A model generated the notes under the pieces. It searched no databases, was not told the DNA's origin, and saw only the letters and a program-made list of their open reading frames with translations. A DNA stretch of 64,000 bases. Source: Cyanidioschyzon merolae (Eukaryota). Each line of letters opens with the position of its first letter. Position 1 is the first letter of the stretch. The translations under genes were made by a program, and so were the position numbers. Shown here one piece after another: positions 14,203 through 64,000 of this stretch. Where the stretch lies: assembly GCA_000091205.1 (NCBI GenBank), contig AP006495.2. The stretch is one strand, 5' to 3'.

Positions 14203-15442
14203 TCCCGAAACTCGTTACAGGCTCTGCGACAAAACACTGCAGCGACACCAAAGTGCAAAAGAGCGCGGTTCCGACCGCGGGCTTCGGCGACCGTTGACCA
14301 GCCAGCTACCAGCAACAAGCACCTGTGCTAGCACAGCTGTAACCCTCAACCAGGTCGTCGACGCACCTATACGATAAGGGGCTTTGTTCTGCGCACGAAG
14401 CCAGAATCCACGGCTCGCTCTCGTCGACGTCGTTCGTTCGACGCAGATGAGATCGAAGCGAAGTTGTCGGTAAAGTCATTGCTGCAGGGCTTGCTTGCCT
14501 TCGATCATGCCGATCCGTCGAGAAACGGTACAGAGAGCCATAATGGATATCAGGGGATGTGTGATTCCACGACAGCGCTCCACAGATATCTTCCTGTCAT
14601 GCGATATCCCTGGATTCGGGTAGATCATCGGGGGCTCTTATGCTTCTTGGATTCGCTGGAAATTCGAGTCGTGCGAATCTGTGATCGTCTGTGAACGACA
14701 CGCGAACATCACGCCAGGTGTCTATGGACGACGCACCGGCATTTCTGGAATGCTGAAAGACGGTGCATCCGTGGCAAGCTCCAGGCGTGAATCCAAGCGC
14801 TAGCTCCGGGTCACCGATGCTTTTTCTTGTCATCGCGGGTGGTCAGCGTTTCAGCGCAATGCGTAGTGCACTGAGTATTGGATGAATTCCTCGACGGTAT
14901 GCTCGACAAGAAGCCGATGGTCGCTGTGGAAGCACGACATATTTCCGGGTGTTGATCGAGGCATTCAGGTACAGGTGCCGAAACGATAACAGGCTTGCGA
15001 TGCCACCAGCATCGCAAGCCTATCACCGCCAATTGGTTACTCGATTTGACTGTCGCTCAGCTTACCGTATACCACGTGGTGCATCCAGCACTGTTTCACT
15101 GTATGCTTCTCTAACGCTTTCAGTGGGTGCCAGCACTCCTAATTCGTGAATGTTGTCGAGCAGTCATCAACGGGTATCGTGCAGTGTCGATGCCTATGCT
15201 CGGTGAACACGCGCGCTGCGAAGAAGCTGTGGTGCCGTCCCTGCGCGCTACCGAACGCCCAGTGCCATTGGCTGGCAACAAACCTCGTGACTTGTCTGTG
15301 CTTTGCTTTTTCAACGCGTTGCATATGACGGTGATTGCGCGCGTCTTGCCTTCGTACTACCGAAACCAGTGGAGATCCGAGCTCTGTCTCGTGTGCGCTT
15401 GATATTGATCGTTCGCAGCAGCCGTTTGGGTGCGTATTTGCG

Positions 15443-15832
15443 TTACGAATGAGTCGTCCAATGCATCCTCCTCTGTACGAGACGGTGCTCAGCGCGCTCG
15501 ATTAGGGTCATGTTGCGGTCTGTGCAGTCGTTCGAATGTCTCCTGATGTCTGCAATGCTCCACTCGCGATGAAACCGAGCTCCGAAAAACTCAGCAGCCC
15601 TTTCTGATTTTCGTTTGAGGTCTTTGGCTCCAGCTCTGACGCCAATCATCCGGGGATGCACGGTCATCACAACGCCCTTGAATTCATCTTCCATGAACGT
15701 CTGAACATGGGTGCCGTTGCTCGACTCAAATCTAGGCTTCACAAAGTGTGTGCAGATGGGTATGCCGCCGACCTCCATTGATGCTGCGAATGGCTTTCCA
15801 TTCCCTCGCTGGAAACGACGAACATGAACCAA
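15443..15832 (-). pseudogene. Possible decayed C-terminal fragment of a TnpB/Fanzor-like ORF (copy D).
   Basis: Weak similarity to the zinc-finger/RuvC-III region of the A and B copies: FMEDEFKGV versus VDEFRTSY, and DRNMTLIERAE versus NRDFNAALHIRR. It lies at the expected distance and orientation downstream of the copy-D leader. Confidence 0.25.
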
Positions 15833-17699
15833 GCACCTCCAATGCCCGTGGCAAACCTATTCAAATGCTTCATACTTGCTCGTTGACGTCAGCCGTAGCT
15901 CGCGGAGAAGCGCCACACCGAACAGATGCGTTTGTCGTGACATGCGCGGCATGTATTCGATACATGGGCAGTGCAGGGAATACCCGCTGGAGGAGGCTAG
16001 GGCGCTCGTTTACAGCGAGGAAATTCGCCATATGCATCGGACGGCTCTGTTCCGGGAAACGTAGTAGTTGCGCATGATGCGAGGAAGGCAGGCTTCCTGT
16101 CCCAAGCATCCCGGCTAGATGACCGCTGTCGGGCCGATGCTGAGAGCAGCACGTTGCCCTTGAAGGATGGCAGGGAGCTCTGGCTCGCGTTGCGACATAT
16201 CCGCAGAACTCGCAACCAACTCGAGCTCTTCTGCCTCCATCCGGCTCATCAGTTGCTTCCACTAGCACCAGGAGGATCCGTTCCATCCGTCATTATCGAT
16301 CTGGGCCAGTAAGGTGACTATACAACGCCCACAAGCTGTGCTTCTTGAAGTGCTCGACACGAACCCGCATGTGAATTTGGCTGTTGCGATTAGTTCGACG
16401 CTTTCTGAGACCAGCGCTGTAGATGCTCTGGTCGCCCCAGTCCAGCTGCGACGTGTCCAGGTACTCTCCGAAGCGCGTTGTGAACTCACTGATCCTACAA
16501 CCAGACCCTATGTCATATTCTCTATCCGGTGTATCGGAGTTGTTGTCGCACGAAGGTTTGATCCATCAATTCCTGATGAATGTTGATAGCTGGCAGCCCT
16601 GCGTCCCGGACTCGTATGAACAGCTGCTCGTCGAGGTACGGCAAGTCGGGTAATACTAGGTGAGCATTCCCAAAGCCAGAAGATAAGCGAAGTTGAATGG
16701 CGTCACGGATAGTTTTTGGATATGAAGCATATGCGCATCTGTCGAATGAATGCTTGTACATAAAAATTCCATTGGACATTGCAGAAGACGTCATGGACGG
16801 GATGGGTCCAAATCCCGGGGCCTCACACGAAAAGCAGCACAACGCCGATACCCGCTACGTGCTCTTTGGCAGCATATTTGTGACGAGGAGCGACATTGTC
16901 TCGGAGGCAGACCAGGGAATGCAGGAAGCCGAAGCCGCTAGTTGCGTTGACGATGCATGAGGTGTTTCATGATCCTTTCCGTATGGAGCATTGTTACCGA
17001 CTGCATGATTGCGTCTCCACTAGGGGTGAAGTTGTTGTGAGGATCGCTTCTCGCTTCGCTACGAGCAGTAGGCTGCCGCTCTGTAAGCACCCATGGACAG
17101 GTCGATCACTCCTCCCGAGTAGCGGTTCATAGCGCGAGACGAGCACCTGTTCCTCATGGGATGCGCAATCCTCTTTCAGGGCGAACCCGATAAAGTCTTG
17201 TCTAAAAAAGAATGGGACGGTCTCCCGTAGACAGGCGCGATTTTTTCGTTGCCCATCCGTGCCGCTTCATCCCCGTTCATATGCACCGTGCGAAAAACGT
17301 CACATACTGTGGTATCTCATGGAGTATCGCCCAGAGAGCATTCGGATTGCAACGGAATAACAAGAAAACAGCCTAGTAGATGGTGTCGGATTGGTTCTTT
17401 TCGGGTGCACGACGCTCGGAATGAAGGATACGAGAACGATCGGTCATCCAAGTGCTGAATTTTGAACGAGCGACCTGGACAAGCGAGGTGTTCTCTTCGC
17501 AGGCGAGCGGCGACAGCATTACGTATTTGCACAGCGCCTTCGTCAATGAAGAGAGGACATACCTTCTGCCAGATACCTGAGAAAAAAATCAAACATAAGC
17601 AAAAGAGCTTCCCATTAAAGATAGGCGGGAATGCGCTTCGATCTCTGCGGTTCGACCGGTCGATGCTTCATCTTCAAAATTACGAGATAAAAGAGCACA

Positions 17700-19150
17700 G
17701 CTAAGGTAGGCATAGGCCTGCAGCACCTAAGGGAGCGAAATGTTTCGCCTCTATAGAGTCTATATAGATATCTACCGACGCACAGGCGCATCCTAGTCGT
17801 TTTTGACCGGCACCTGTTATCGGTGTCAGTTGCTCTCCCAGCACACTTCGAGACCGAGAGGCTGCCGCATAGAGTTGTATCGCGTCAGCCCCTCGGGTCT
17901 CGTCTTCAACAACGCACATCGTCTGATCTGGATAGCAGCACTGAAGTCTCGGCTCACGGAAACCATGCGTTTAGTTGCCTCTGTTTGAACTCACAAGTGC
18001 CAGGCGTCCTCGAACGAGCGCCCTCTGTGTCACCACAGTCTCGTAATCATCCCGTCAGGCAAACACGTTTTCTCGTCTATCTCCAATCGACATCTTCTTC
18101 TTCTTCGTTGCTTGCTCTTCTGCGCCTGATTGTCGCCGAGAAGGAGATCTTCCACGTTCTTTCCTGGCAGCCGGCGAAACGGGGCCTCCAGGATCCGCCA
18201 CGCTCACTTCCATCACTTTATTTTGTTTTGAATATGAACCCGATGTCGAACGCGTCTGCCTTGAACCGCGAAGCATGACTTGAATACACGAGTGTGAAGG
18301 CTGAAGCACAGCCGACTTGCCGGACGATACGTTGCAATGACTTTAACGCAAATACAGCTCGGACGTCAGAGGAACCCGCTCATCATCATCGTGATCGCGT
18401 TTCTCCTCAACGGCGAGATACGCATCGCATCCCATGCCTGCCAGATTTGGAGGTGCGCGTATCGACCCCGCTATATAGAAAAAAGAACACAAACGAACAT
18501 CTAACTAGCAACGAGATAACGATTTCTTTCCACCGCTACGATCAAAGTCAAACAGAGGAAACGTTTTCCGTATTGTCGAAAGTTTACCTTCCAGACGAAA
18601 GGTCCCGCAAGCCGGACGAGTCGATCGGGCTCTCGCGCCATATTCCTCCGTAGGGGCGGGTGCTGTAATGAGACCTGAGCAACTCGTCGGCAACGCAGTT
18701 TATTCTGGGACTCGGAGCGGGTAGCCTGCGTCTGCGCGTCGCCCTGGTCGCAGTGGACTCCTAGCAGCTCGCTTCCCGCTGTCGCAGGCAGTGGATCTGT
18801 CAGCACATCTTCCATGCTTCCAGAATGCTGATGAATCTCGATTCCGTATTCACTGAATCATGCCGCAAGCGGACGCCCTCAGTAGTATCCCAAAGCGGCG
18901 CTGTCTCTGTGCTCCATCCGCACCATCTGTAGCGGTGCTATTGCGGGTGCTTACCGCGGGTACTAGATGCTCGACAGAACGTACGAAACTACAAGTACGT
19001 ACAGCAGAATGCATACGTAATGGGACTTGAAGAAAGGATCCAGCATCATGGACGTTTTGTCGATTACCAATACCCATCCCACAGTCGGGGATCCGCGGTC
19101 CATCGAGACGTACTGCCGAATCGCACCAATCAGCGCAATGATCTCCTTGA
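17700..19150 (-). mobile_element. Decayed copy (D) of the conserved roughly 1.3 kb leader of the Fanzor-like repeat, plus a remnant of the ORF N-terminus.
   Basis: Long nucleotide homology to A 38750-40070 (reverse complement) and B 59066-60190. Shared strings include GACGCCCTCAGTAGT, CTATTGCGGGTGCT, AGCCGGACGAG, GGCAGCCGGCGA and CTTGAATACAC. The short peptide MCVVEDETRGADAIQLY...VDIYIDSIEAKHF resembles the ORF1 N-terminus of copies A and B. Confidence 0.5.
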
Positions 19151-28389: not shown

Positions 28390-28650
28390 GCTGTTACCGA
28401 TGATCGACTCTAAACCGTCTCAAATTATCCCATGATCGACTAGGTATGTACCAGAGCGTCTTGACGAATACCTCTTGTCGTGTTGAGGCACTGATCAACG
28501 AGCTTTCTCGTGCCTGCTGAGCTGCAGGTGCAGCGGCACTGGATTATCCACTGGGCGTGTCGTGCGTACCGTGTGTGTCGAGTCTGGTGGCGGCAACACG
28601 TGCGCTGCGTACGTCTTGCCGCGGAAGTGACGAAATGCCAAGGTAGTGAG

Positions 28651-29176
28651 AAACGTAATCCCTGATAGCAAAATGTATATCTTCGTATTCAATACATGAA
28701 CGCCTCTGATTCCCTTTGGAGAGAAGGACTATGCGAAGGCACTGAGAAACCTAATCCCTGATAGCATCATGTATATCTTCGTATTCAATACATGAACGCC
28801 TCTGATTCCCTTTGGAGAGAAGGACTATGCGAAGGCACTGAGAAACCTAATCCCTGATAGCATCATGTATATCTTCGTATTCAATACATGAACGCCTCTG
28901 ATTCCCTTTGGAGAGAAGGACTATGCAGGCACTGAGAAACGTAATCCCTGATAGCATCATGTATATCTTCGTATTCAATACGTGAACGCCTCTGATTCCC
29001 TTTGGAGAGAAGGACTATGCGAAGGCACTGAGAAACCTAATCCCTGATAGCATCATGTATATCTTCGTATTCAATACATGAACGCCTCTGATTCCCTTTG
29101 GAGAGAAGGACTATGCAGGCACTGAGAAACGTAATCCCTGATAGCATCATGTATATCTTCGTATTCAATACATGAA
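28651..29176. repeat. Tandem minisatellite of about 5.6 units of 96 bp (93-96 bp variants).
   Basis: Direct repeats of GGCACTGAGAAACCTAATCCCTGATAGCATCATGTATATCTTCGTATTCAATACATGAACGCCTCTGATTCCCTTTGGAGAGAAGGACTATGCGAA. Unit starts are at about 28651, 28738, 28834, 28928, 29024 and 29118. Each unit contains the inverted repeat CATGTAT...ATACATG. Confidence 0.95.
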
Positions 29177-38504: not shown

Positions 38505-40071
38505 AGCAGTCTCACTGTTCGGTTCGTTACAGACAATCCTTCTGTTAGGGATTAAGAAACGCTCCCCAAAATCACCCACGTTGAGAAAGAAAAAAGAAAA
38601 CTTGCCTCCAGAGGCTATGCAACGATAGCTTCTAGAGACGTTTCGAATGGTGGCATGGCCTCCGAACCGTTGTACCCCGTGGCAAGATCGAGTCTGTACA
38701 TAATTATCCAAAAGTTGAAGGCGCTCGATACGCCGGACAGCGCTGCGCGGCGCTGCTACCGGGACACGTTGCGGCTATCGCGCGATCGCGTATCGCGTGA
38801 CTGTCGATTGAATCCTTTTTGTCCAGATATATTCCTTATTTGGACAGAGCGATATGGACGCAGGTTGTTTTTTGATGGCAAAACGCTGATATGGACCATG
38901 GATGCCAGTCTGGGGGATAGATATTGCAACAAATGAAAGCGCTCAGCAATGTTCACTCTCGTTCCGAGTTCCACGACGCACATTTTCGCACGGCTATACT
39001 GGTCGCTTTGCACGTTCCCTGGTGCGCCGCATACTGGCAGTGAGCACCCGCAATAGAGCCTATGCTGCTCGTGCGGATACTGAACGGAGACAGAGCGGCT
39101 TTGCTATATCAGTGGGGGTGTCGGCTCGATGCGTGGTGCATTCGACACGGAACCAGGGTACATTATCATTCTGGGGCCTGCCAGCTGCGAATGCAGACCC
39201 ACTGCCTGTGGCAGCGCGAATTGATTCGCAGGGAGTCCTCTGCGACCAGCACGACGCCCAGAAGGAGCTTATCCGCTCCGAGTCCCAGAGTAACCCGCGT
39301 TTCGGACGAGTTGCGTAGACCTCACTACAGCACTAGGGACTGGGGGAAGCGTGAAGCACGAGCCCGGGAGACTCTTGCGGCTCGCGGGACCCTCTGCTTC
39401 TACGGTAAACTTTCGACCATACGGAAAGCTTTTTGCCCCTTTTGACGTTTATCGTAGAGAGGCAAAGACATCTTTATATCGTTGCTAGGTAGTAGTGAGT
39501 TTCAGTTCTACGTTCGATATAGTGCGGTCGGTTAGCGCTCCTCCGTATTCAGCATGCATGGGACACGACTCGCATGTCGTCGTTGAAGGGAAACACGATC
39601 CTAACTATTCGTTGACTTGCTATTCTACAGTACAAGATCTATTTGCGTGAAAGTCGTAGCAAAGTATAGCTTTCAATTCAATCGCGTGTCAAGCCTCAAC
39701 TAAGTGTATTCAAGTGATTTTTTGCGGTTTATAGCAGAAGCGTTCAACGTGCGTTGTTTATCCAAAATTAAAAAATGGGAATAGTATAGAGAAGGAGGTG
39801 GAGGATCCTGCAGGCCGAGTGTCGCCGGCTGCCAGAAAAAAACGGAAAATAATGCCGAGTCCAGAAGAAAAGGAGGAGAATAAGAAGCAAGGGAGGGAGC
39901 CCCCGTAGTCAATGGCTGCACGAAAGACGACACTGCGACGACATGGTAGTCGAAGCCTGTCTTCCCAAACATATCAAGGATCCCTACAAGCAAAAGATGC
40001 GAGAGGCCATCAGAAGCCGTATCCATTCGTACTCCAGGTAGGTTCATAAGGTTTCTGGAGGACTGAATCAT

Positions 40072-41914
40072 ATGTTGAGGGAGATATACGATGACGTTAC
40101 GGACACCAAACCGGTCGAGGTTCCGGAAGAATTTTTCGACAAGACCTTTATTCGTCACCTGATGGTTAGAACAGGAGAAACGTCGGGGGGAAATGATGGA
40201 GTGCATGCACTCCACGAAAACTACGCAGAATACCACTCCAATGGTACTCGATACAGCGTTCACCCGTGTATTTACGAATACGGGGCGAAGAAGTACCTCA
40301 CGAACCTGAAGAACCATATGACGATGAACCTCGAACGTTTCATGATACGCACCGTGTTTGCACTTTATCCGGGCCTGTCTTGCAATAGGATATGGGGCAT
40401 CATCGAAATCATCTCGAACGATCGTCAACATGAAGATGAGATCGAATTCGTCGACAAGAAGACATCACGCAGGAGAAAGAATGAGGATTCTGTAATCCGT
40501 ACGGTTATGCAAGAGCACCGTGCGGTACTGGGCTGGCGAATCCAACAGACAAGATATCAGAGTTGAAAAAAGATAAGGAAAGATACTATCGCCTCGTCCC
40601 GCGCCATGTTGTGTTTCTGGACCGAGAACTCGAACGCAAGGCAGAGGTGAAGCTGGGTGAGGAAAACAATGAAGAGTGGGAGAAACGGAATGCAGTCCTA
40701 ATGGCGAAGCGCTTCAACGTGGTTCCAATGTGCAAGATCAAGTCACATTTTATGACTATCGACTTCGGCGTCCTTTACGGCATAATGAAGGAGATCAGTC
40801 CGGAGTTCAATGTTAGTAGGGAGGAACTCTCCGGTGAAAACCGGGATACGTACAGTAAGAAGAATATCTTCTATTTCAAACGTCTCAAAGTGAGCAAACA
40901 AAAGGTATTTGCTGGGTTGATCGAAATCGATGGAGTAGTCATGTGTGTACACTATCGGCGGTTGACGAAAGATCGTCCAGTCCCGCCCTCTGCTGCGCCC
41001 TCGACGAAGCATGAAGAAAACGAACAAGCGGATCCTGCGACCGAGAAAGTGCGAGGTACCGACTTTGACGTTGGCACGGACCCCGGCAACGCAAATATCA
41101 TAAGCATCGCAGAACCCAAGCGTGCCGTGCGGAAGATGGTATTGACGGTAAATTACGTCGGAAAGGCATGCGTCTTTTGACATCCTCGAGAGCAAGATAC
41201 TATCGAGAATCGGGAATCATGAATGCGAAGAACAAATTCGACAAATAGAATTCAGGAATGAAAGAACACCTGGAAGCTTTGAGCGAGGTGACAAGCCGAG
41301 GAGCGGACTTTGAAGCTTTTCTGAAATTCGTGGAAGTTCGCGTTGCTCATTGGGATGCGCTATGGAAAGAGTACACCAAGCCCAGTTGGGCTCGTCTGCG
41401 TATGAATCTATACGGTGGGAGGCAGCGGGCGATCGCGAACTTTTTCAATCAGTTGAGCGCCTTGAAGGAGAATGAAAGTCAGAAGCTTGTTGTAGCATAC
41501 GGAGCAGGGCGCTGGAAGACCCAAAAGGGGTGTATGCCAGCTCCGACGACGAGGGTGAACAAGGAGTGCGCAAGGCGTTTCATTACGATACCCGTAGATG
41601 AGTTCCGAACATCGTATACACACCATGAACTGGGGTGTACATTTCAAAGAGTGGAGCTGGAAAAGTGTCAATGGAGCCCTGAGGAAATCGCAAAGTACGG
41701 ACTGCTGACGGAGGAGCAAAGGGAAAGGAGGGCAAAAGTTCAAGGGCTACTCGCACTGGTGAGTACAACCAGTGACGGCAAGAAACGTATGGAGTTTGTG
41801 AACCGAGATTTTAACGCCGCTCTCCATATACGGAGATGTGCGGTGCTGGAGGAAAACCCCCAGAGTAGACAAGAGGGAATTTTGATGGAGAACCTCTCAA
41901 GTCGAACTATATGA
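40072..41914 (+). pseudogene. TnpB/Fanzor-like (OMEGA-family RuvC) nuclease gene of about 614 codons, broken into three frames in this copy.
   Basis: RuvC-I-like motif [30 protein letters not shown] segment where TnpB has the RuvC-II Glu, consistent with a Fanzor1-type rearranged site. Zinc-finger-region motif VDEFRTSYTHHELGC...KC. C-terminal RuvC-III motif FVNRDFNAALHI (RDxNAAxNI). ORFs 40072-40566, 40563-41180 and 41258-41914 are in frames 1, 0 and 2. A 1-nt deletion relative to B near 40530 causes the first shift. Confidence 0.7.
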
Positions 41915-42080
41915 GAAAAAATTGGAAGCAGTAGTAGGTGGCCGGTCCAAAAAAACTGGGAGGCGTCTGCACGTCAGTTGGAGACGTTTTGTCTAGGGCG
42001 CGTTCACCGCCACTACTGTACACCGTTGGCGTCGTTCGAGTGCGAAAGGCGTTTGCAGTTGGCTTCGTCACGCATCCATA
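41915..42080 (+). ncRNA. Candidate omega-RNA / right-end scaffold region of copy A (hypothesis).
   Basis: Non-coding tail immediately after the stop, conserved in A, B and C. Shared strings include GTCTAGGGCGCG, CGCCACTACTG and GGCGTCGTTCGA. The inverted segments CAGTAGTAGGTGGCCGG / CCGCCACTACTG and CGTCT..AGACG could form stems. The position matches where TnpB and Fanzor guide RNAs are encoded. Confidence 0.3.
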
Positions 42081-42635
42081 CATATTTGCATGTACAGTAT
42101 ACGTACGCGAGCAAGGAGACAGAAATGAGCGCTGCTGTGTACTTGTATACATCCGATAACGCTTTAACGCATGCATGTATTTGCATGTAGAAGTATATGC
42201 AGGCAGGCAATGATGTAGATATGCATCCATGCTTTCAAGCATGGGCTTACATGCGATTCTTGTATATACCGCAGATCCCAGGCGAAGCGATGCCTTTCCG
42301 TGAGGTTCTCTAAGACGTCAAGCCGCGCGATCCCCGTGCATCACAGCTGTTCCTACGTGGCATGAGAATACCGTCGAATAGGGGTCTATTTTCGTTCTTC
42401 TTTCGTATCATGTGCGAATGAATAATACCTCGTCTTTCTGTGATGCTTTTGAGAAAAGAACGTGCAGCAATACTGAAACAGAAGGCACGCGCATGCCGCA
42501 CGCCAAACCGTCAACTTTTCTCAGTACCCTGGTTTCCCGATATGACTTTATGATTCGATTCACAGAGATGGAGCTCTGTGTCGAGCGTCAGCGCCAACGT
42601 TGGGCAACCGGATCACACTCGAGAATTATCACTGC

Positions 42636-44408
42636 TCACGTGATCTCGTATGCTCCCACAGGAGATAGCGTTGCCGGCGTCGCTTCTGAGGACGAACGTG
42701 TTCGGCTGGATTCCCAGCCCAGAGGTTCCACAGTTACCGGGTTGTAGAGACTCTCCGGTTTCTGCCGCGTACCTAGACGCCATCCAAGCCAAAAAATTGC
42801 CACGCATCCGAGAAAAACTAGCACGCCGCTGAGTACACCTAGGATGAACACTACACCCCATTTGCGCCGAGCGGTATCCCTGGCTATATAGTCGGGTGTG
42901 TTCGTCACCGTAAGCCAGTCGTTCTTAGACGGCCGACAAGCTTCCGCACGGATCTCGCTCGAACGTGCAGACGAGGATCGTTTTGAGACAAGCTCCATGA
43001 ATCGTCTTAGTGTACATATCGGTTCACAGCCCGGGAGCTCGAATACCTCCCAATTATACCGCACGACGACGTACCACTTGTCCAGCGCCTCCCGAGGCAT
43101 GAAATCATCGGAGCGTTGCTGCATTTGGGGCAGTTGTTGCTCTCGTTGTCGTTGTGCATTTGGTGCGGTACGTATATCGGATGTGCTTATGGCTGCGCTT
43201 CCCGCTTTAAGAATGCCATTCGGAGGCTGCTTGTGAAGCTCACGAAGCTCCACGATAATCGTGGAACCGAACGGCGGTGCTCGTTCAGGATGCATACCGA
43301 GCACTGCCAGCAGGGCTGCCAATGTCGTGTCGTGCCCAGAGAAGAGCACGAACTTCTCCGTTCGAAGGCCAGCGATTTTCGTCCGCAGCAAGTTCAGTAT
43401 ATGGAGTGCCAAGGGACCACCCGTCAGATTCGCGGCTTCCGCGCTCCGGTAAAGGTCCGCAAAGCAGAATCCATAGAGGGTTCGAACTCGTTCGCGGACC
43501 GAGTGATTCACCTCGGGAGGCAGCTCGATACCCTGCGCTGCATCGCATTCCCATACATCATAGGCAGTCGCAACATCGTCCAGCGTGGCTGGTCGACCTA
43601 GCCCCATAATATTTCTGCCGAGGTATTCCAGCCACAGCTGATTCGCGGCCTCAAGCTCCCTCCAGGCCCCTGATAGACGCGTTTGCATCTTGAGTTCCTG
43701 CCAGCGAGCGCACCCTACACCAGGCAGCATCATAATATCTTGAGACGTCTCTATGGTGTGCACAGGTACTGGCTGGTACTGCACCCTTGTATCTGATGTG
43801 TTGGTATAAAAGAGCCCCAGGAGTTGATTCGTAGCCGAAACCAGGGCCCGATCGATATCACTACTGCGCACATGCACGTCCACCACGTTGTAGCGCACCG
43901 GCAAGAAACCGTCATAAACATAGCGGAGTATCCTACCTAGTTCAAACTGCTGATGGATACCGATCGGGGTGAGCTGGCCGATCCCCTCGGGCCACTTGTG
44001 GTATGGCAACGGGTCACGTGGGTATGTCCCGAGCGGAACGCGGGCGCCGTGTCGACAAACCTCAATAATCATGATCAAAGAGGTGTTCTGGTTAGCCGCC
44101 AGCACCTCCTCGCGTACCCTGTGTGCCCAGAGCGGGGGCCAGGACTCCACACGCCGCGATGCGAGTCGTTCCAGGGGGTCGGCTCCGACAAGTCGTCCAC
44201 TCGATCGACTGCGTGTACTGTTGGCGGTGAGCACTGCTTCCAAGCTGCTCCGAACGTCCAAGTCACTCAGGGCTCGCTGTCTGCCTTTCGGGTTACTGCT
44301 ATTTGGAGACTCGTCTCCAGTGGGTAACCTCACGAGGGGCCCCGTCCTTCCGAACTCGCCAACGAGCAGCACCAACAGTACACCGAGAGCCAGTAGTCTG
44401 AGCGTCAT
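42636..44408 (-). CDS. Membrane-anchored histidine acid phosphatase (branch 2 histidine phosphatase).
   Basis: Signal peptide MTLRLLALGVLLVLLVG. RHGARVP signature (CRHGARVPLG). Catalytic FSGHDTTLAALLAVLG. C-terminal TM segment VVFILGVLSGVLVFLGCVAIFWLGW followed by a short cytoplasmic tail. Confidence 0.85.
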   Translation of the reverse strand: MTLRLLALGVLLVLLVGEFGRTGPLVRLPTGDESPNSSNPKGRQRALSDLDVRSSLEAVLTANSTRSRSSGRLVGADPLERLASRRVESWPPLWAHRVREEVLAANQNTSLIMIIEVCRHGARVPLGTYPRDPLPYHKWPEGIGQLTPIGIHQQFELGRILRYVYDGFLPVRYNVVDVHVRSSDIDRALVSATNQLLGLFYTNTSDTRVQYQPVPVHTIETSQDIMMLPGVGCARWQELKMQTRLSGAWRELEAANQLWLEYLGRNIMGLGRPATLDDVATAYDVWECDAAQGIELPPEVNHSVRERVRTLYGFCFADLYRSAEAANLTGGPLALHILNLLRTKIAGLRTEKFVLFSGHDTTLAALLAVLGMHPERAPPFGSTIIVELRELHKQPPNGILKAGSAAISTSDIRTAPNAQRQREQQLPQMQQRSDDFMPREALDKWYVVVRYNWEVFELPGCEPICTLRRFMELVSKRSSSARSSEIRAEACRPSKNDWLTVTNTPDYIARDTARRKWGVVFILGVLSGVLVFLGCVAIFWLGWRLGTRQKPESLYNPVTVEPLGWESSRTRSSSEATPATLSPVGAYEIT

Positions 44409-56132: not shown

Positions 56133-57023
56133 CTAGTTCCCAAAGGCGCCCAGCAGTTGCTCAACAGCAGGCTTGACACGTTTTTCATACCAGGACGGAT
56201 CCGGACAGAGCTCCTGGATTTTGCGCGCCATTGCTTGCCAGCCGTCTTTAACACGGCTCAAATCCAGCCCAAGTTCATGGTAGAGCTCCAGTAGTAATGC
56301 AACGTTGCGTCGGTGCAAAAAGTCAACTGGCGGTGCATTCTCCTCCTGAGCCAGCACCGCATAACTCACAATGCGAAGCTGATCGCGCATGTCGTTGGCG
56401 AGCTGTTCCTCGATGGCTTCGGTGCGGCTCAGCGTTGCCAGATTTTTTCCCTCGTAGCATTCTTTCTTCACCCTTGCAGCCGCAATGCCAGCTTCGATGA
56501 TCGCCTCCGCATTGGTCGTAATGACTGCCGCCACGTCAGCGCCCTGAAAACTCCTCCTACCACGATATGACTCAATCTCTTCGATAGGGACGAACATCAG
56601 CGCTGTATCATTTTTCCGGCAGGTGTTCGCGGCTTCTGTATGGAAGCCGTCACCACACCGAAGAAGCGACTTGTGACTGCGCAAAAACGCCCGCAGGGCC
56701 TGCGCACGCCTCGACATGTGATCCGTCTTTGGGACCGAAGTTGGAGCGGGCGCACCATTGTTCTGGGAAGCAGCACCAGCGCCGTCACGCGGGCCGGCAC
56801 CCACCGGGAACGGTGGAGTTAATGTCGAGGTGATCTGCAGCGCCCGACAAGCACGCTTTGCGTTCGCCAACGAGCATGGGGAAACCCGCCGGAGCGACCT
56901 CCCGTGCGAGGAAAGCCAACGGCTACTCCAAACGAAGCCAGTCGACGCCTTCCTAACCAACGCTACACTTGAAGCCTTTCGATGTTTCGGTGAATAATGC
57001 AAAAAAATGTTTGTAAAAGCCAT
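56133..57023 (-). CDS. Hypothetical conserved-looking protein; the start is ambiguous (ATG at 57023 or at 56717).
   Basis: Uninterrupted ORF. The C-terminal half is not low-complexity (FVPIEEIESYRGRRSF...NAEAIIEAGIAAARVKK...LLELYHELGLDLSRVKDGW). The first 25 or so codons overlap the tail of repeat copy B. Confidence 0.4.
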   Translation of the reverse strand: MAFTNIFLHYSPKHRKASSVALVRKASTGFVWSSRWLSSHGRSLRRVSPCSLANAKRACRALQITSTLTPPFPVGAGPRDGAGAASQNNGAPAPTSVPKTDHMSRRAQALRAFLRSHKSLLRCGDGFHTEAANTCRKNDTALMFVPIEEIESYRGRRSFQGADVAAVITTNAEAIIEAGIAAARVKKECYEGKNLATLSRTEAIEEQLANDMRDQLRIVSYAVLAQEENAPPVDFLHRRNVALLLELYHELGLDLSRVKDGWQAMARKIQELCPDPSWYEKRVKPAVEQLLGAFGN

Positions 57024-60000
57024 GTTCGAGCGCACGACACGCACCAACAAACGCCCCTCTAAAGTCGAACGACGCCAGCGGTATGCAGTAGTGGCGTGTG
57101 ACGCGCCCTAAACAAGACGACTCCAACTGACGTAGAGACGCCCACCAGGCGTTCTCGGCGGTCCATGTACTAATGCTTTCAATCATGTCTCATATAGTTC
57201 AACATTGGGAGGTTGTCCAATAAAGTTCGCTCTTGTCCATTATGAGGTCTTCTTTCCATCACCGCACATTTGTTTATATTAATTGCGCCATAAACATCTC
57301 GGTTCACAAACTCCATACGTTTCTTGCCATTAGAAGTTGTACTTTCTAATGCGAGCAATCCTCGAACAATCGCCCACCTTTCCATTTGCTCTTCCGTCAG
57401 CGCTCCGTACGTTTTTATATCCTCAGGGCTCCGCTGGCACTTTTCTCTTTCGGCTCTCTGAAGTGTACATCCCAACTCGTGGATTGTATACGATGTTCGG
57501 AACTTATGTACAGGTATCCTAGCGAAACGCCTTGCGCAATCCTTATATATTCTTGTCGTGGGAGCTGGTGTAGTCCCTTTTTTGGGCGCCCAGCGCCCTG
57601 CTCTGCACGCTACTACGAGCTTTTGACTTTGATCCTCTTTGAGGGCACTGAACTGATTGAAAAAGTTGACGAATCCACGCTGCTTCCCACAGCACAGATA
57701 CATTCGCGATAGAGCCCACATGGGCTTTAGATATTCTTTCCAAAGCGCCTCCCAATGAGCAACGCGAACTTCCATGAATTTCAGAAAAGCTTGAAAGTCT
57801 GCTCATCGGATCGTCAGCTCGCTCGAAGCTCTCAGGTGCTCCTTGATTTATGCATTCCATGTCTCAGTTTTCTTCCTCGCATTCTTTATACCGGATTCTC
57901 GATAATATCTAGTTCTTGAGAACCTCAATAGACGCATGTCGCTCTCACGTAAGCTGCCGTCAATGCCATCTTCCGCACGCTTGGGAGCAACGATGGTTAT
58001 GCTATTCGTATTCGCAGGGTCCGCCCCAACGACAAAGTCGTTATCCTGCACCTCCTGCGTCGCTGGATCTGCCTCTTTGATTTCTTCATGCTTCGCAGAG
58101 GGCGAAGCGAAAGGCACGATAGGACGATCCATCTTCAACCGCCAATAGTGCACACACATGGCTACACCATCGGTTTCGACCATCCCAGCGAATACCTTTT
58201 GTTTGCTCACTTTGAGACGTTTGAAATAGAAGATACTCTTCTTACCGTATGTCTCACGGGCTTCACCGGAGAACTCCTCCATTGTAGCATCGAACTCGGG
58301 ACTGATCTCTCTCATGATGCCATGAAGGGTTCTGGAGTCGATACTCACAAAATGTGACTTGATGTTGCACATTGGAACCACGTTGACGCGCCTCCCCATT
58401 AGAATAGCCTTCCGTCTCTCCCACTCTTCATTTGTCTCTACACTCAGCTTCATTTCCGCCTTGCGTTCGAGCTCTCGGTCCAGAAACACGAAATCGCGCA
58501 GAATGAGGCGATAGTATCTTTACTTGTCTTTTTTCAACTCTGATATCTTGTCTATTGGATTCGCCAACCCCAGTACCGCACGGTGCTCTTGTATAACCGC
58601 ACGGATCACAGAAGCTTCATTCGTGCTCCTGAGTGACGCCTTCTTGTCGACGAATTCGACCTCATCTTCATACTATCGATCGTTCATGGTGCCATTGATC
58701 ATCGCCCATATTCCTTTGCGAGAGACGCCCGTGTGGAGTGCAAACACGGCGCATATCATGAAACGTTCGAGGCTCTCTGTTAAATGGTTTTTCAGGTTCG
58801 TAACGTACTTCATCGTTCCGTATATGTAAATATTCGAGTCACCCTTGCATCGAGTACCCTCGAAGCAGAATTCCGCGAAGATTTCGTGAAGAGTGCGAAC
58901 CAGCTCATTTTCCCTCTGCGCTTTCCCTGTACCAAGCATCAAGTGACGAATATGTGTCTGGTCGAAGAGCTTGTCCGGAAGCTCGACCGTTTCCATGTGC
59001 GTCACGTCGCGATACGTCTGCATCACCAAATGCATCAGTCCTGTCGACGCCTTGACAATACTCATGGAGTACGAGTTGACATGTTTTTTGATAGTGTCTC
59101 GAAACTTTTTCTTATATGGATATTCTTTATACGTTTACGAAGACCGGCGTTCACCACCATGTTGTCATAAAGTAGTCTTTCTTGCATGCATCGACGTAGG
59201 GCCTCCCCCTTTTGCTTCTTCATCTCCCCCTGTCCTCTGGACTCCACACTGTTTTCGGTATTTTTTTTCCGGCAGCCGGCGATAATGGGCCTACAGAATC
59301 GTCGACTAGCTTTTTCATAACTTTCTTTTTTTAGCTTTTCTTCTCAAAACAGAACTCTCTTTGAACGCGTCTATTATGTGTTGCGAGAAAACTCTTGAAT
59401 ACACTTGTCTTAGGTTCGAAACACATATGAACTGAAAAACTGTACTTTGCTAGGGCTCGAACGGAAATCCAACTATTACAGCTAAACAACACGCTCCTGA
59501 TCACGATAGCGTTTTCCTTCAACATCGGCGGCATTCGCGTCGTGTCTCATGCCTGCCTGATTTCCCACGGGTGCTAACCGATAGCTCTATTTAGAACAAA
59601 GAAAAAAGAACAGAGACTCGCAGTCCGCGAGCAACGATATAGCGATTTCGTACCCGCTCTACAATAAACGTTGAAAGAGGAAAATCATACAGAATTTTAG
59701 AAAGCTTACTTTCCAGGCGCAAGGTCCAGCGAGCCGGACGAGTATGCAAGGCTCGTGCTCCATGCTCCCCCAGTGGCAAGCGCTTTAGTGCGACCTGACC
59801 AACTCATGCACCAAGCAGTTTATTCTTGCGCGAGGAGCGGGTATGGTGCAAGTGGTCATCGCATTGCTCGAAGATGATTCCTAGTATATTGCTTCGCGCT
59901 GCCGCAGGCTGCACGTCTGTCTCCGCAGTTTGCAGGCTCCCTGAATGATAACGAGTCCGGATTCCGTCTCAGTGGAGCCACACCTCGAGACGACGCCCTC

Positions 60001-60190
60001 AGTAGTCTCGCAAAGCCATTCTTTCGCTGTGATGAGGCTGCACCTTCGGTGTAAGCAATAGGGAAGGCTCGGCACGCTAGAGAACTACAAAACGGCCAGC
60101 ACATCTCGAACGAATTATAGGTAATGGAGTTTGAAAGTAGGCTGAAGAATATCGAGCGCTTTCATTTCTTTCAATATTCATTCCGCTGTC
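56960..60190 (-). mobile_element. Copy B of the Fanzor-like dispersed repeat (leader + ORF + tail).
   Basis: Collinear nucleotide homology with copy A across the leader (59066-60190 versus A 38750-40071), the ORF and the tail (56990-57178 versus A 41915-42080). Boundaries are approximate. Confidence 0.6.
57179..59065 (-). pseudogene. TnpB/Fanzor-like nuclease gene, copy B, interrupted by nonsense mutations.
   Basis: Paralogous to the copy-A ORFs, for example MFLDRELERKAEMKL...[16 protein letters not shown]...[18 protein letters not shown] and KRMEFVNRDVYGAININKCAV. In-frame stops include a TAG at 58675-58673 (where copy A has CAA), a TAA at the ELKKDK junction, and a TGA where copy A has GGA before ADFxAFLKF. 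Confidence 0.7.
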
Positions 60191-60396
60191 AGCGATCCAT
60201 AAAGCAAGTCAACATTTTATCATCAAATGAAACGCCAGAATCAGGTGCTCACCATTTAGGAACACGCGCCGACGCAAATATCGCCGCCGTTGGTCGGCAG
60301 GTACGGCCCGACCTCGCGGGGCAGGCTTCAACTTTGCTGAACGTTCGCTGAACCTCACGTTTCAATTTCTTTAAAGCGTCTGCTGAGGCTTGTCCA

Positions 60397-61443
60397 ATGG
60401 TTGACGAGAAAGGCGATCTCTGTTTATGGGAGCATCTGGTGGCTGGCGGCGGGGCGACACTCTCCGCCGTCAGCGTTATGCACCCGTTGGACACGATCAA
60501 AATCTACATGCAACGCGCTCAGGTGGCAACCGCAGGCGGCAGCGCTAACGTCCGGCCGACAATGCTCGGCGCTGCGCAAGAAATCTTGGCTCAAAGAGGG
60601 CCCGGAGGATTTTACGCCGGCCTAGGTGCCAATCTCAGCGGGCAAGTGCCAGCAGGCGCGATCAAGTTTGCAACTTACGAGCTGCTGAAGCAACACGCCG
60701 TGCAGAAGCGGCTCCCGGCTGCAGCACAGGGTTGGGGCGAAGTCGCCTCTGCAGCGCTGGCGTTTCTGGCCTGCTCTGTAGTTCTGGTCCCCGGTGAGGT
60801 CGTAAAGAGCCGCCTCCAGGCCGGTTTGTATCCGAGCTTCCGCGAAGCGCTTCTGCGTATCATTGAGCAGGATGGCGTTTCTGGACTCTACAGGGGCTAC
60901 TGGGCCACAGTTACGCGTGACGTCCCGTATACGATGCTCGAGTTTGGGCTATACGAGCAGTTTAAACGAGCGTGCATGTGGTCTGTTAAGCGCGATCGAC
61001 TACATTCCTCAGAGGAATGGACCATGGGTGGCCTCGCTGGCGGCGTAACCGGTTGGTGTACCACCCCGCTCGATGTCATTAAGACGAAACTCATGACGTG
61101 TGCACGCTCGCAATACCGCGGCTACTGGGACGCCGCTCGTGACGTTTGGCATCGAGAAGGGCTGAGCGGCTTCTTCACCGGGGGACTCGCCCGCGTGCTG
61201 TGGTTGGTCCCGTTCACAGCGGTGTTCTTCGGCAGCCATGAGATCATCAAGCGATTTTTACGAAGTCGTAAGCGGCAATATTCTACGTTGCGAAGCACCA
61301 GAATCCCTCGGATGGATCCGGAGGCGTCTGCGTCCTCTAACTGCACCTGTCGATACAAGTCCATCAAGTGGTTCGGATCGAGTACTCTTATCTGTGACGT
61401 CCGGATCAAGCCTGCGTATCGCTCGCCTCGACATCCGTTCTAG
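60397..61443 (+). CDS. Mitochondrial carrier family protein, S-adenosylmethionine carrier-like (SLC25A26/Pet8).
   Basis: Three carrier repeats with HPLDTIKIYMQ, PGEVVKSRLQ and TTPLDVIKTKLM, matching the SAMC signatures FPLDTIKTRLQ, PTEVVKQRAQ and TTPLDVAKTRI. ATG at 60397. Confidence 0.85.
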   Translation: MVDEKGDLCLWEHLVAGGGATLSAVSVMHPLDTIKIYMQRAQVATAGGSANVRPTMLGAAQEILAQRGPGGFYAGLGANLSGQVPAGAIKFATYELLKQHAVQKRLPAAAQGWGEVASAALAFLACSVVLVPGEVVKSRLQAGLYPSFREALLRIIEQDGVSGLYRGYWATVTRDVPYTMLEFGLYEQFKRACMWSVKRDRLHSSEEWTMGGLAGGVTGWCTTPLDVIKTKLMTCARSQYRGYWDAARDVWHREGLSGFFTGGLARVLWLVPFTAVFFGSHEIIKRFLRSRKRQYSTLRSTRIPRMDPEASASSNCTCRYKSIKWFGSSTLICDVRIKPAYRSPRHPF

Positions 61444-61667: not shown

Positions 61668-63650
61668 TCAGCTATCCGCTAAGTTCGTATTCGCGTCTAG
61701 GGGCCGCCAGCCAAGGTCTTGCAAGGCCGTCAAAGAAGCCGATACGCTAGAGCTCCGCCAGCGCGGCGACTTCCAGATCGAGCCGCCCCGAGTCTCCTCC
61801 GTCCAGAGCGGAGCACCGGTATCCCCAACGTGATAGCTGTTCTCGATTCGTACGTTCGTTACACCGATCTGGGCAAACGCTTTCGTCAGCTGCGCGAAGG
61901 GATCCTCGGTGACGCTCCAGTGCGGATCCGCAATGGATACCGAGCGCCCTGACGACACCGAATGTGAGATCGGTGAGTTATCGGGCAAGCATGGGTTCCC
62001 CGTCGCTGGTTTCCTTCGTTCGCCAACAGCACCGAGAGAGACAGAACAAGAGCGCCTAATCGCGCCGCTTGCCATTTGAATTGCCGGGTCCCAGGAGATG
62101 AACGCCTGCTGTGTCAACGGTTCGACCTCTGGGTGTAGCGCTGTACGATTACCTGTAGCGTCACGTTCTGACAAAGAAATACGCTCGTATTCGTCAAAAG
62201 AACGCCATGCGTTGACCATAGCCCCTGATGCTTGAGGCGGTGCCCCTTCGGCTGCATCACCCACAAGCCTTGTTGAGCGTTCTGAGGCCGCGCGCGTCCC
62301 CAGGCCGGGCTCCGCATGCCACGACAAGGGCGAACTGCTTCCCCAGATGCATCCAAGCTTAAACAGATCGTTCTCTCTTGCTGCACTAATCTTGGGAGAG
62401 GCGAACTCGTCAAAGACGAAGTCGTCCTCATTTGGACCCGCCTCGGCACCCGAGATACTCCCTGCGTCCTGCCTCGCATCGATATCAGAGAGCGGCTGCA
62501 GCGTCGCGTTGGAGCAGGGCTTCTTCGTCTGCGTACAGGTCGCGGATCGAAACGCATGCAACGGTGGTGGAGGCCCGTACCTACTCTGGAGAAAAGCCTC
62601 CCGGGATATGGCATCTGTGTTGGAGGCAAACTCATGTCGGTATAAACACGCGGGATCCACGCAGCGTTTCTGGGTCGGTGGCTGCGGCGGTTTTGCGCCG
62701 TTGGATGCCCGCTTTCGAGATATGACCTTTGCGCCGGCGAATGCAACCGCTACCGTATCGCTTGCATCGAGTGGCCTTATTGACGGGTTCCGTCCAGATG
62801 TCCATTGTGCAGACTCAATCTGGCTCTGTTTCCATTCAACGAATGTTTTCAGGTATTGCTCACAGGCCTGGACAAATGCCTCACAATAGCGCACCGTGCC
62901 ATAGGAGACGTGCACTTCATGGCCTTGCCAGCGCGCCCCGTCGTAAAGCTGTATTGCGCGGGTGGCTGCCGCCTCATCTGCATACTCCACATAGACGCCA
63001 GTTCCCTGGACAAAGAGAACTCGTTGGATTCTCCCCGTCTTTCCGAACATGTCCGAGCGCCGAATTGTGTGCTCGGACCAGAGAGATTGGTGCAATCCAC
63101 GAATGCAGATCAAGTTCCGCTGCACGATAAAGGTCTGACGCATTGTTCGTATCCGCTTGGCGAGCTCGTACTCCCGCTGCTCCTGACGTTCCCTCTCTAG
63201 CTGTTCTTGGCGAAGCTGTCGCTCCTTTTTGCGCCTGTTTATTTCACGTAGTCGTTCCTTCTCTGCAAGACGTTCATCACTAAGCTCCTCGCGGAGTTGA
63301 AAGCGGCTCTCGTCGTACGGCGTCCGGCACGCGGGGCACCGGGGGACCTGGCCCTCCTCGCACGCTGTGCGAAGGCGACTCAGGCACCACAGGCACACTT
63401 GATACCCGCACGCGCAAGGAAAGAATGCTTTCTCTGCGGCATCCAGTTCCTCAAGGCAGAGCGGACACTCGCTGCTCTCTTCCGAAGGTTCGCAAGGTGC
63501 CTCATCGGCTGACTTTCCAGAAGCGTGACGGTGCGTAGCCTGGCGCCGCGTCCGTCCGTTTCTTGCCCGCCCGCCTGTCGGCTGCCTAACGCGTTTCAAA
63601 GAAAAAGAACTGTCAGAGGTATCCACAAGTTTGGCACCGCTGAACGCCAT
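61668..63650 (-). CDS. NOT4: CCR4-NOT complex subunit 4 (NOT4/Mot2): RING E3 ligase with an RRM and a C3H zinc finger.
   Basis: RING: CPLCLEELDAAEKAFFPCACGYQVCLWCLSRLR...CPACRTPYDE. RRM: VYVEYADEAAATRAIQLYDGARWQGHEVHVSYGTVRYCEAF. C3H: CVDPACLYRHE. ATG at 63650-63648. Confidence 0.9.
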   Translation of the reverse strand: MAFSGAKLVDTSDSSFSLKRVRQPTGGRARNGRTRRQATHRHASGKSADEAPCEPSEESSECPLCLEELDAAEKAFFPCACGYQVCLWCLSRLRTACEEGQVPRCPACRTPYDESRFQLREELSDERLAEKERLREINRRKKERQLRQEQLERERQEQREYELAKRIRTMRQTFIVQRNLICIRGLHQSLWSEHTIRRSDMFGKTGRIQRVLFVQGTGVYVEYADEAAATRAIQLYDGARWQGHEVHVSYGTVRYCEAFVQACEQYLKTFVEWKQSQIESAQWTSGRNPSIRPLDASDTVAVAFAGAKVISRKRASNGAKPPQPPTQKRCVDPACLYRHEFASNTDAISREAFLQSRYGPPPPLHAFRSATCTQTKKPCSNATLQPLSDIDARQDAGSISGAEAGPNEDDFVFDEFASPKISAARENDLFKLGCIWGSSSPLSWHAEPGLGTRAASERSTRLVGDAAEGAPPQASGAMVNAWRSFDEYERISLSERDATGNRTALHPEVEPLTQQAFISWDPAIQMASGAIRRSCSVSLGAVGERRKPATGNPCLPDNSPISHSVSSGRSVSIADPHWSVTEDPFAQLTKAFAQIGVTNVRIENSYHVGDTGAPLWTEETRGGSIWKSPRWRSSSVSASLTALQDLGWRPLDANTNLADS

Positions 63651-64000
63651 TCAAAAGTCGAACGATGCCGAAGGTGTACAGTAGTGGCGGCAAACGCGCC
63701 CTAGACAAGACGTCCTCAGGCGACGTGCAGACGCATCTGTCTTTTTCGACCGGCCACCTACTACTGGTTCCAACTTTGTCTCATACAGTTCCACTTTGAG
63801 TGATTGTCAAGCAAAGTCCACTCTTGGCCACTCTGGAGGTCTTTTCTCCAGCACCGCACATTTCCTTGTATTGATTGCGGCATTAAAGTCACGATTCACG
63901 AAATCAATCCCTTTCTTGCCACTATTAGTTGTACTTAATAATGCAAGTAGCCCACGAACTTTTGCCCTCCTTTCCATTTGCTCATCCGTCAGCGGTCCGT
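63651..64000 (-). mobile_element. Copy C of the Fanzor-like repeat. Only the tail and the last 64 or so codons of the ORF are in the window; it runs off the right edge.
   Basis: The tail 63651-63806 is nearly identical to the copy-A tail (CCAGTAGTAGGTGGCCGGTC...GTCTAGGGCGCG...CCGCCACTACTGTACACC...GGC(A/G)TCGTTCGA). The C-terminal coding fragment 63807-64000 on the - strand reads LSTTNSGKKGIDFVNRDFNAAINTRKCAVLEKRPPEWPRVDFA*, with a perfect RDxNAAxN RuvC-III motif. Confidence 0.6.

Follow-up and report, generated by a model that had tools for sequence, protein, structure and literature searches.

A dispersed repeat in a 64,000-nucleotide stretch of Cyanidioschyzon merolae DNA identified as the Fanzor1-encoding transposon CMe-1A

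We analyzed a 64,000-nucleotide stretch of Cyanidioschyzon merolae DNA (contig AP006495.2 of assembly GCA_000091205.1; the whole stretch is termed the window), in which an earlier note made from the sequence alone had picked out a dispersed repeat with a TnpB/Fanzor-like protein. This repeat is almost certainly CMe-1A, the Fanzor1-encoding DNA transposon of the C. merolae 10D nuclear genome, and its copies in the window are dead. The family is not new: it was published in 2013, with its 3169-bp consensus and its assignment to Fanzor1, by Bao and Jurka, who defined Fanzor1 and Fanzor2 in the same paper (Mob DNA 4:12; PMC3627910). Their paper lists one Fanzor1 family for C. merolae, with CMe-1 as its Fanzor1 protein, and puts the number of CMe-1A copies at about 150, with an identity of about 80% between each copy and a consensus of about 3 kb. 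According to the same authors, CMe-1A lacks terminal inverted repeats (TIRs), its target-site duplications (TSDs) were left undetermined, and the 635 bp at its 5’ end share 95% identity with TE-N2_CMe, a non-autonomous element in its own right. The 3169-bp consensus is given in their Additional file 2, and the supplementary files also provide an intact 734-amino acid (aa) protein, CMe-1. A search of the later literature for a C. merolae Fanzor/TnpB element or for the domain label DUF8286 (see below) returned nothing relevant beyond PMC3627910.

Copies of CMe-1A in the window and their decay

Comparison of the window with itself by blastn aligned copy A with copy B (39089-42039 versus 60025-57065; 74% identity over 2983 nt), the tail of A with 64000-63643 on the minus strand (80% identity), and the leader of A with 18957-18155, likewise on the minus strand (70% identity). 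The dispersed multi-copy repeat claimed earlier is thus real and well above chance. We refined the copy boundaries by alignment to the published 3169-bp CMe-1A consensus, using blastn, tblastn, and global alignment. Copy A (38873-42051, plus strand) spans consensus positions 1-3169 with 83.8% identity over 3159 aligned columns of the global alignment (83.3% by blastn over consensus 2-3145), and copy B (57052-60225, minus strand) is full-length as well, with 81.1% identity over 3146 columns. Organism and element are the same as in the 2013 description: the 734-aa consensus protein aligns to the window copies codon by codon, the divergence of the individual copies agrees with the published figure of about 80%, TIRs are lacking, and the 5’ 635 bp are common with TE-N2_CMe. 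No essential difference from CMe-1A emerged, the window copies being individual decayed members; our small additions are a conservation that extends slightly past both ends of the consensus, and the finding that the first ~645 bp are swapped in hot-spring relatives.

A complete CMe-1A element measures ~3.17 kb and consists of a 5’ non-coding part, an intron-less 734-codon gene, and a ~60-nt tail with short hairpins. In copy A, all on the plus strand, the 5’ module (38873-39510; consensus 1-635, the TE-N2_CMe part) is without coding potential, and a Pfam search of its ORFs gave no match. Then come the start of the core and the 5’ untranslated region (39521-39785; consensus 646-905), which opens with a short hairpin rich in G and C (consensus sequence GCGCG...CGCGC), the remains of the 734-codon CMe-1 gene (39786-41996), and a 3’ tail past the stop codon (41997-42051) with two short hairpins, the second of which reaches the terminus of the element and is followed by TT.

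The remaining copies, C and D, are partial. Copy C (63645-64000) is a CMe-1A 3’ end cut by the edge of the window (consensus 2809-3169; 83.9% identity over 361 nt, blastn); it had been recognized as edge-truncated, to which we add its location on the minus strand. Copy D (17774-19111, minus strand) has suffered an internal deletion with loss of ~1.9 kb of the coding region, leaving three blastn pieces (19111-18155, consensus 11-964, 78.0%; 18025-17856, consensus 2840-3011, 71.7%; 17814-17774, consensus 3051-3092, 78.6%) and, by tblastn, protein traces of aa 1-36 and aa 640-706 of CMe-1. The earlier note had drawn D as a decayed full copy at about 15.4-19.15 kb, thereby merging this deleted copy with a distinct and older relic at ~14.9-16.7 kb (relic F, see below). 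Its list of copies A to D stands as far as CMe-1A copies are concerned, but it missed fragment E (3680-3922, plus strand), a lone decayed piece of ~240 nt from the 3’ region of the CMe-1A coding sequence (consensus 2737-2982; 71.5% by blastn), which matches aa 608-702 of CMe-1 at 51.6% identity (tblastn) and in which the RuvC-III Asp is gone (QRFNAAIN). The copies occupy intergenic gaps, with unrelated genes on either side.

Read in the consensus reading frame, A contains five frameshifting indels, three in-frame stops, and ATT in place of the ATG start codon; the coding remnant of B (57108-59318, minus strand) is disrupted by three frameshifting indels and six in-frame stops. In the lists of open reading frames (ORFs), A is spread over three frames and B appears as one frame broken by stops. 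Alignment of A to the CMe-1 protein by tblastn yielded 65-82% identity in five frame-shifted pieces, and all three catalytic motifs (DPG, VDEF, RDFNAA) are still legible there: GTDPGNAN at 41073-41096, VDEFRTSYT at 41594-41620, and NRDFNAA at 41801-41821, with VVAYGAGRW at 41489-41515. In B, DPG has changed to DPA, the RuvC-II region reads VVACRAGRW, the third motif reads VHKFRTSYT (57485-57511), and the last one NRDVYGA; the change from VDEF to VHKF means that the catalytic Glu is lost. Copy C has kept RDFNAAIN (63870-63893), with an in-frame stop further downstream, so that the RuvC-III RD is present in A, B, and C. A and B are full-length pseudogenes, and the window harbors no active copy. 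The earlier description of A and B as two near-full copies was therefore correct for their extent but not for the ORF they were said to carry: an open frame of about 614 codons exists in no copy, and the ORF of the consensus has 734 codons.

The ratio of non-synonymous to synonymous substitution rates (Ka/Ks) is ~0.42 for A and B versus the consensus and 0.47 for A versus B. Values of ~0.42 point to protein-level selection before the copies died, as would be expected for descent from master elements under selection with decay after insertion. The family thus diversified under protein-level selection, the copies having died afterwards.

Fanzor1 membership of the encoded protein

That the repeat encodes a TnpB-family protein of the Fanzor1 type in eukaryotic nuclear DNA, as had been proposed, is supported by its 81-84% DNA identity to CMe-1A together with profile matches, predicted folds, and the conservation of catalytic motifs. 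A query protein of 696 aa was stitched together from A and B; in a large protein collection it had 46 close relatives, nearly all from JGI metagenomes, and a profile search widened the set to 138 proteins of 600-700 aa. P0041, P0044, and P0046 are intact, more distant members of 660-700 aa, and an exhaustive search returned 2955 relatives at E<=1e-3, counted as cluster representatives. We built the family profile from 111 sequences. Compared with solved Fanzor1 proteins, it matched PpFz (9cf0) at E=1e-18, SpuFz (8gkh) at E=4.5e-12, and GtFz (9cer) at E=0.007, with the family motifs DPG, (D)EFRT, and RDxNAA falling on the matching Fanzor1 motifs; the lack of a profile match, which the earlier note had named as a refutation, is thus not what we observed. 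Within the window, the family profile matched A at E-values from 3e-68 to 8e-8, B from 3.6e-49 to 1.5e-38, C at E=3.4e-14, and fragment E at E=8.3e-9.

In Pfam, the distant members P0159 and P0150 scored 29.0 and 25.9 bits with Cas12f1-like_TNB (PF07282; cut-off 26.3 bits), and part of the family proteins carries the label PF26935 (DUF8286), a domain of unknown function. The link to TnpB is visible only through the deep profile and the folds. An annotation gap became apparent at this point: Pfam covers part of the Fanzor1 clade just as DUF8286, and searches of Pfam or the PDB with single sequences miss TnpB.

Across the 111 family members, the RuvC-I motif DPG is nearly invariant (Asp in 110, Pro in 107, Gly in 110). 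The canonical RuvC-II site reads AYG, with Gly in 110 of 111, and an alternative Glu 33 residues downstream of it, within VDEFRT, is present in 110 as well. Near the C-terminus, the RuvC-III motif RDxNAA retains its Asp and its Asn in 109 members each. The RuvC-I motif of Fanzors has been described as DPG (Yoon et al., PMC10711439), and the canonical RuvC-II Glu of Fanzors as replaced by Pro or Gly, with an alternative Glu shortly before the Zn-finger region (Jiang et al., PMC10530073; PMC10711439). The motif counts of the family agree with this published signature. Gly or Ala in place of the canonical RuvC-II Glu had been taken as a sign of Fanzor1, which the family alignment bears out, and all four peptide motifs quoted at the time were located in A. 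For VDEFRTSYT, the motif was correctly spotted and its label was not: rather than marking the zinc-finger region, it carries the alternative catalytic Glu, and Zn-finger Cys residues are not conserved in this clade.

Structure prediction, another check that had been suggested, was done on relatives of the window copy, and the AlphaFold models were compared to the PDB with Foldseek. P0041, at 39% identity to the protein stitched from A and B, was modeled with a mean predicted local distance difference test score (pLDDT) of 91.8 and a predicted template modeling score (pTM) of 0.89. Its best Foldseek match was SpuFz (E=1.5e-17; template modeling (TM) score 0.65/0.71), along with PpFz and GtFz, followed distantly by Cas12f and other Cas12 proteins. 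P0001 is the closest relative that is nearly intact, with an identity of 68% to repaired A overall and of 78% to the stitched query in the best BLASTP segment. Its model reached a pLDDT of 84.3 and gave the same Foldseek ranking, with TnpB further down the list. The models of both relatives thus predict a TnpB/Cas12-type fold with a split RuvC domain, nearest to solved Fanzor1 structures, so that a structure without a RuvC fold, the other refutation named earlier, was not seen either. A feature peculiar to some relatives is a stretch of tandem repeats with a unit of ~25 aa, which in P0001 (locus L004, 6001-8259) occupies residues ~380-469 directly upstream of the RuvC-I strand and is also present in P0007 and P0010; AlphaFold predicts this stretch of P0001 to be disordered (pLDDT <50). 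The repeats of P0001 represent an expanded linker before the catalytic Asp.

The top structural matches of the family models, at TM ~0.5-0.7 and E-values of 1e-14 to 1e-17, were the Fanzor1 structures of Spizellomyces punctatus (SpuFz; 8gkh, 9ceu-9cez), Parasitella parasitica (PpFz; 9cf0-9cf3), and Guillardia theta (GtFz; 9cer-9cet). Features common to these and the CMe-1 clade are the DPG of RuvC-I, the alternative Glu in (D)E(F/Y)xTS, the C-terminal RD of RuvC-III, and homology at the profile level, whereas sequence identity amounts to only 11-16%. Guide RNAs and target-adjacent motifs of SpuFz, PpFz, and GtFz are known by experiment, a further point in which they differ from CMe-1. Behind the Fanzor1 structures, TnpB and Cas12f were the next structural matches. 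With bacterial and archaeal TnpB (IS200/IS605, IS607) and with Cas12f, the family has in common the split RuvC fold and the TNB domain (PF07282 in distant members); unlike both, the CMe-1 element is eukaryotic and nuclear, and its protein is ~250-350 aa longer with a basic N-terminal stretch. Further differences are that Gly stands in for the canonical RuvC-II Glu and that an adjacent TnpA transposase is lacking; Pfam scans for a transposase domain, which covered six ORFs of the leader and six ORF pieces of the coding region from A, B, and D, gave no match.

Modules, termini, and the 3’ tail

The long leader seen earlier is indeed common to the copies, yet its first 635 bp are not an integral part of the Fanzor unit. 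In relatives from metagenomes, 30 BLAST alignments exceeding 400 nt (about half of the long ones) start at consensus 640-689, and upstream of these starts we found recurrent, mutually dissimilar 5’ sequences, one of which is a TE-N2-like end in reverse orientation (loci L004, L008, L016, L018, L022, L025, L031, L033, L037, L041, L055-L057, L069, L071, L083, L085, and others). The swap point corresponds to 39510-39521 in A. Judged from this exchange among relatives, the TE-N2_CMe part is a separable and exchangeable module, which refines the 2013 description and does not overturn it. The Fanzor core, in turn, opens with a small GC hairpin (GCGCTC-GGT-GAGCGC or GCGCG...CGCGC) that recurs in most copies.

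To define the termini, we used independent junctions, 24 at the 3’ end and 17 at the 5’ end, from loci L008-L087, together with the ends of A (38873, 42051) and B (60225, 57052). Beyond the published consensus, the 5’ junctions carry a T-run that fills positions -7 to -1 (T in 47-88%, with the minimum at -1), and the 3’ junctions carry TT (in 100% and 96%) and after it a weak TGTTG. These sequences could stem from a preference for certain targets, from a short duplication, or from true termini that lie slightly further out; since both flanks are T-rich, a short TSD would be indistinguishable from target preference. At one locus (L041, 3642-3697), two elements stand head to tail, 54 nt apart, with a CMe-1A 3’ end, a T-run, and the next 5’ end in succession. 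This pair fits a common preference for T-rich sites.

An alignment of 27 copies resolves the 55-60 nt past the stop codon into two hairpins. The first, GGCGGG-TTT-CTCGCC, directly follows the stop codon. The terminal one reads CGTTTTTC-TTTT-GAAAGGCG in one sub-family and, with a shifted register, GTTCGA-CTT-TCGAAC in another. Several of the pairs are G-T, which would fit an RNA or a single strand in sense orientation. By analogy with characterized Fanzors, a guide (omega) RNA scaffold ending in the 3’ tail is a reasonable expectation rather than a finding.

These observations may be combined in a more daring view, which we consider rather unlikely at present: CMe-1A may be a modular composite, with a mobile Fanzor core that begins at about consensus 646, is bounded by the 5’ hairpin and the 3’-terminal hairpin, and inserts without TIRs beside T-rich sites (a T-run to its left and TT to its right), TE-N2_CMe being one of several interchangeable 5’ partners. 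Such a layout would be reminiscent of single-strand transposition of the IS200/IS605 type. If it were true, the T-run would be the target-adjacent motif, the terminal hairpin would mark the end of the guide-RNA scaffold, and the consensus could be resurrected as a Zn-finger-less Fanzor1 of an alga from hot acid springs.

Alternative explanations, neighboring features, and significance

A zinc finger of the type CxxC...CxxC is typical of Fanzor and TnpB proteins, although it is not part of the original definition. Several results weigh against the assignment of the repeat to Fanzor1 or against a functional element, none of them contradicting the identification itself. The 111 family members lack a conserved Cys pair of this kind in the TNB domain: the residues following the alternative Glu are H/H/E/D/D/S, and the lone common Cys is that of RGLLWC (72 of 111), whereas SpuFz and PpFz have the Cys pairs CPRC and CPKC after the alternative Glu. 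We treat this as a clade-level loss, that is, a difference and not an exclusion from Fanzor1, because CMe-1 counts among the Fanzor1 proteins in PMC3627910 and all the other features are present. Pfam searches with the separate ORF pieces and the stitched 696-aa protein gave no TnpB-related match, and phmmer with the stitched protein and a search with an 11-sequence profile gave none among PDB sequences. Concerning the tail, the terminal hairpin is predicted in most copies when these are folded one by one, with a mean z-score of only -0.74 and hence a small excess of stability; RNAalifold returned a weak consensus fold of -2.9 kcal/mol with no covariation for the last 270 nt of 27 copies, and an Rfam search of the whole window found no match. 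Finally, we looked for an intact copy and found none in the window and none among 80 related metagenome loci (of Cyanidioschyzon-like algal origin, judged by content), the longest being truncated or out of frame at one end, so that not even the family at large may be taken to be active.

The lack of direct database matches is the point in favor of two other explanations. Automated annotation would not have named the protein, its Pfam label being just DUF8286 (PF26935) and single-sequence searches of Pfam and the PDB giving no TnpB match, so that the repeat might pass for what the earlier note had raised as a possibility, a new, lineage-specific Fanzor/OMEGA family whose near-intact copies allow a first reconstruction of the active gene. 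This is very improbable, as the element, its 3169-bp consensus, and the intact 734-aa protein were published in 2013 for the same genome, and A and B, both heavily disrupted, match that consensus at 81-84% over the full length. The same empty searches, with the stitched protein as well as with the 11-sequence profile, would also be compatible with TnpB-like strings arising by chance in an unrelated repeat whose protein has no RuvC fold. We consider this close to impossible: the deep profile matches three solved Fanzor1 proteins, two high-confidence models have Fanzor1 structures as their best matches (E ~1e-17), ahead of Cas12f, other Cas12 proteins, and TnpB, each of the three catalytic positions is kept by at least 109 of 111 homologues, and relatives at E<=1e-3 number in the thousands.

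A third explanation starts from the coding sequence: A retains all three catalytic motifs, and a Ka/Ks of ~0.42 versus the consensus indicates past purifying selection, as would be seen if one of the copies were a domesticated host gene of Fanzor origin with a cellular function. Frameshifts and stops are present in multiple numbers in every copy, however, A is without a start codon, Ka/Ks values below 1 are usual for divergence between active master copies before insertion, and the copies lie in gaps between unrelated genes, all of which makes domestication extremely unlikely. The repeat is thus best read as CMe-1A, represented in the window by dead members of a Fanzor1-encoding family.

Beside copy D lies relic F (14897-16719, minus strand), a heavily decayed and much older remnant of a divergent Fanzor1 lineage other than CMe-1A. 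A six-frame profile search detected four fragments at E<1 in the expected order (profile positions 48-104, 117-170, 304-413, and 578-601; best E=3.4e-8) and two weaker ones (E 4.5 and 8.2) at profile positions 468-535, order kept; a weak colinear tblastn trace agrees. DNA similarity between relic F and CMe-1A was sought and not found, and its DPG has degraded to HPR. For C. merolae, PMC3627910 has only one Fanzor1 family, whereas relic F suggests a second lineage.

The surroundings of the repeat are those of eukaryotic nuclear DNA, as had been stated before. The ORFs at 60397-61443 and 42636-44408 match the C. merolae 10D proteins BAM81150.1 and BAM81146.1 exactly, and the neighboring genes are eukaryotic, including those for an IRE1-like kinase/RNase, a histidine acid phosphatase, a mitochondrial carrier, and a phycobilisome-like protein. 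The ORF at 56133-57050 (minus strand), which adjoins the 3’ end of B, has a Pfam Phycobilisome-protein match (E=7e-8) in its C-terminal half, which suits a red-algal host. Unrelated to the Fanzor element, a tandem array at 28635-29176 comprises 5.7 copies of a 96-nt unit with 96% matches and an alternating super-period of 190 nt.

Fanzor1 proteins were reportedly shown to be RNA-guided nucleases in 2023. As a Fanzor1, CMe-1 belongs to the TnpB/Cas12-type nucleases and has one split RuvC domain, whose active site would be formed by the Asp of DPG, the alternative Glu of VDEF, and the Asp of RDFNAA, with Gly where TnpB has Glu. Guidance by RNA, the place of the guide RNA in the element, and a role in transposition are inferred from SpuFz, GtFz, and PpFz: transcription of the 3’ end of the element would yield a guide RNA for the protein of an active copy to bind, the guide-bound protein would cut DNA matching the sequence that adjoins the element, and cutting would presumably help the element to persist or spread.

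As a discovery, the present result carries little weight, since the 2013 paper already gave the family, its copy number, its consensus, and its place in Fanzor1. It does illustrate that a reading of the bare sequence correctly recognized a Fanzor1 relic from three short motifs. The family does offer a Fanzor1 clade that lacks the Zn finger, from an alga of hot acid springs, and its intact consensus ORF might be of interest to engineers of compact nucleases, provided that the guide RNA can be defined.

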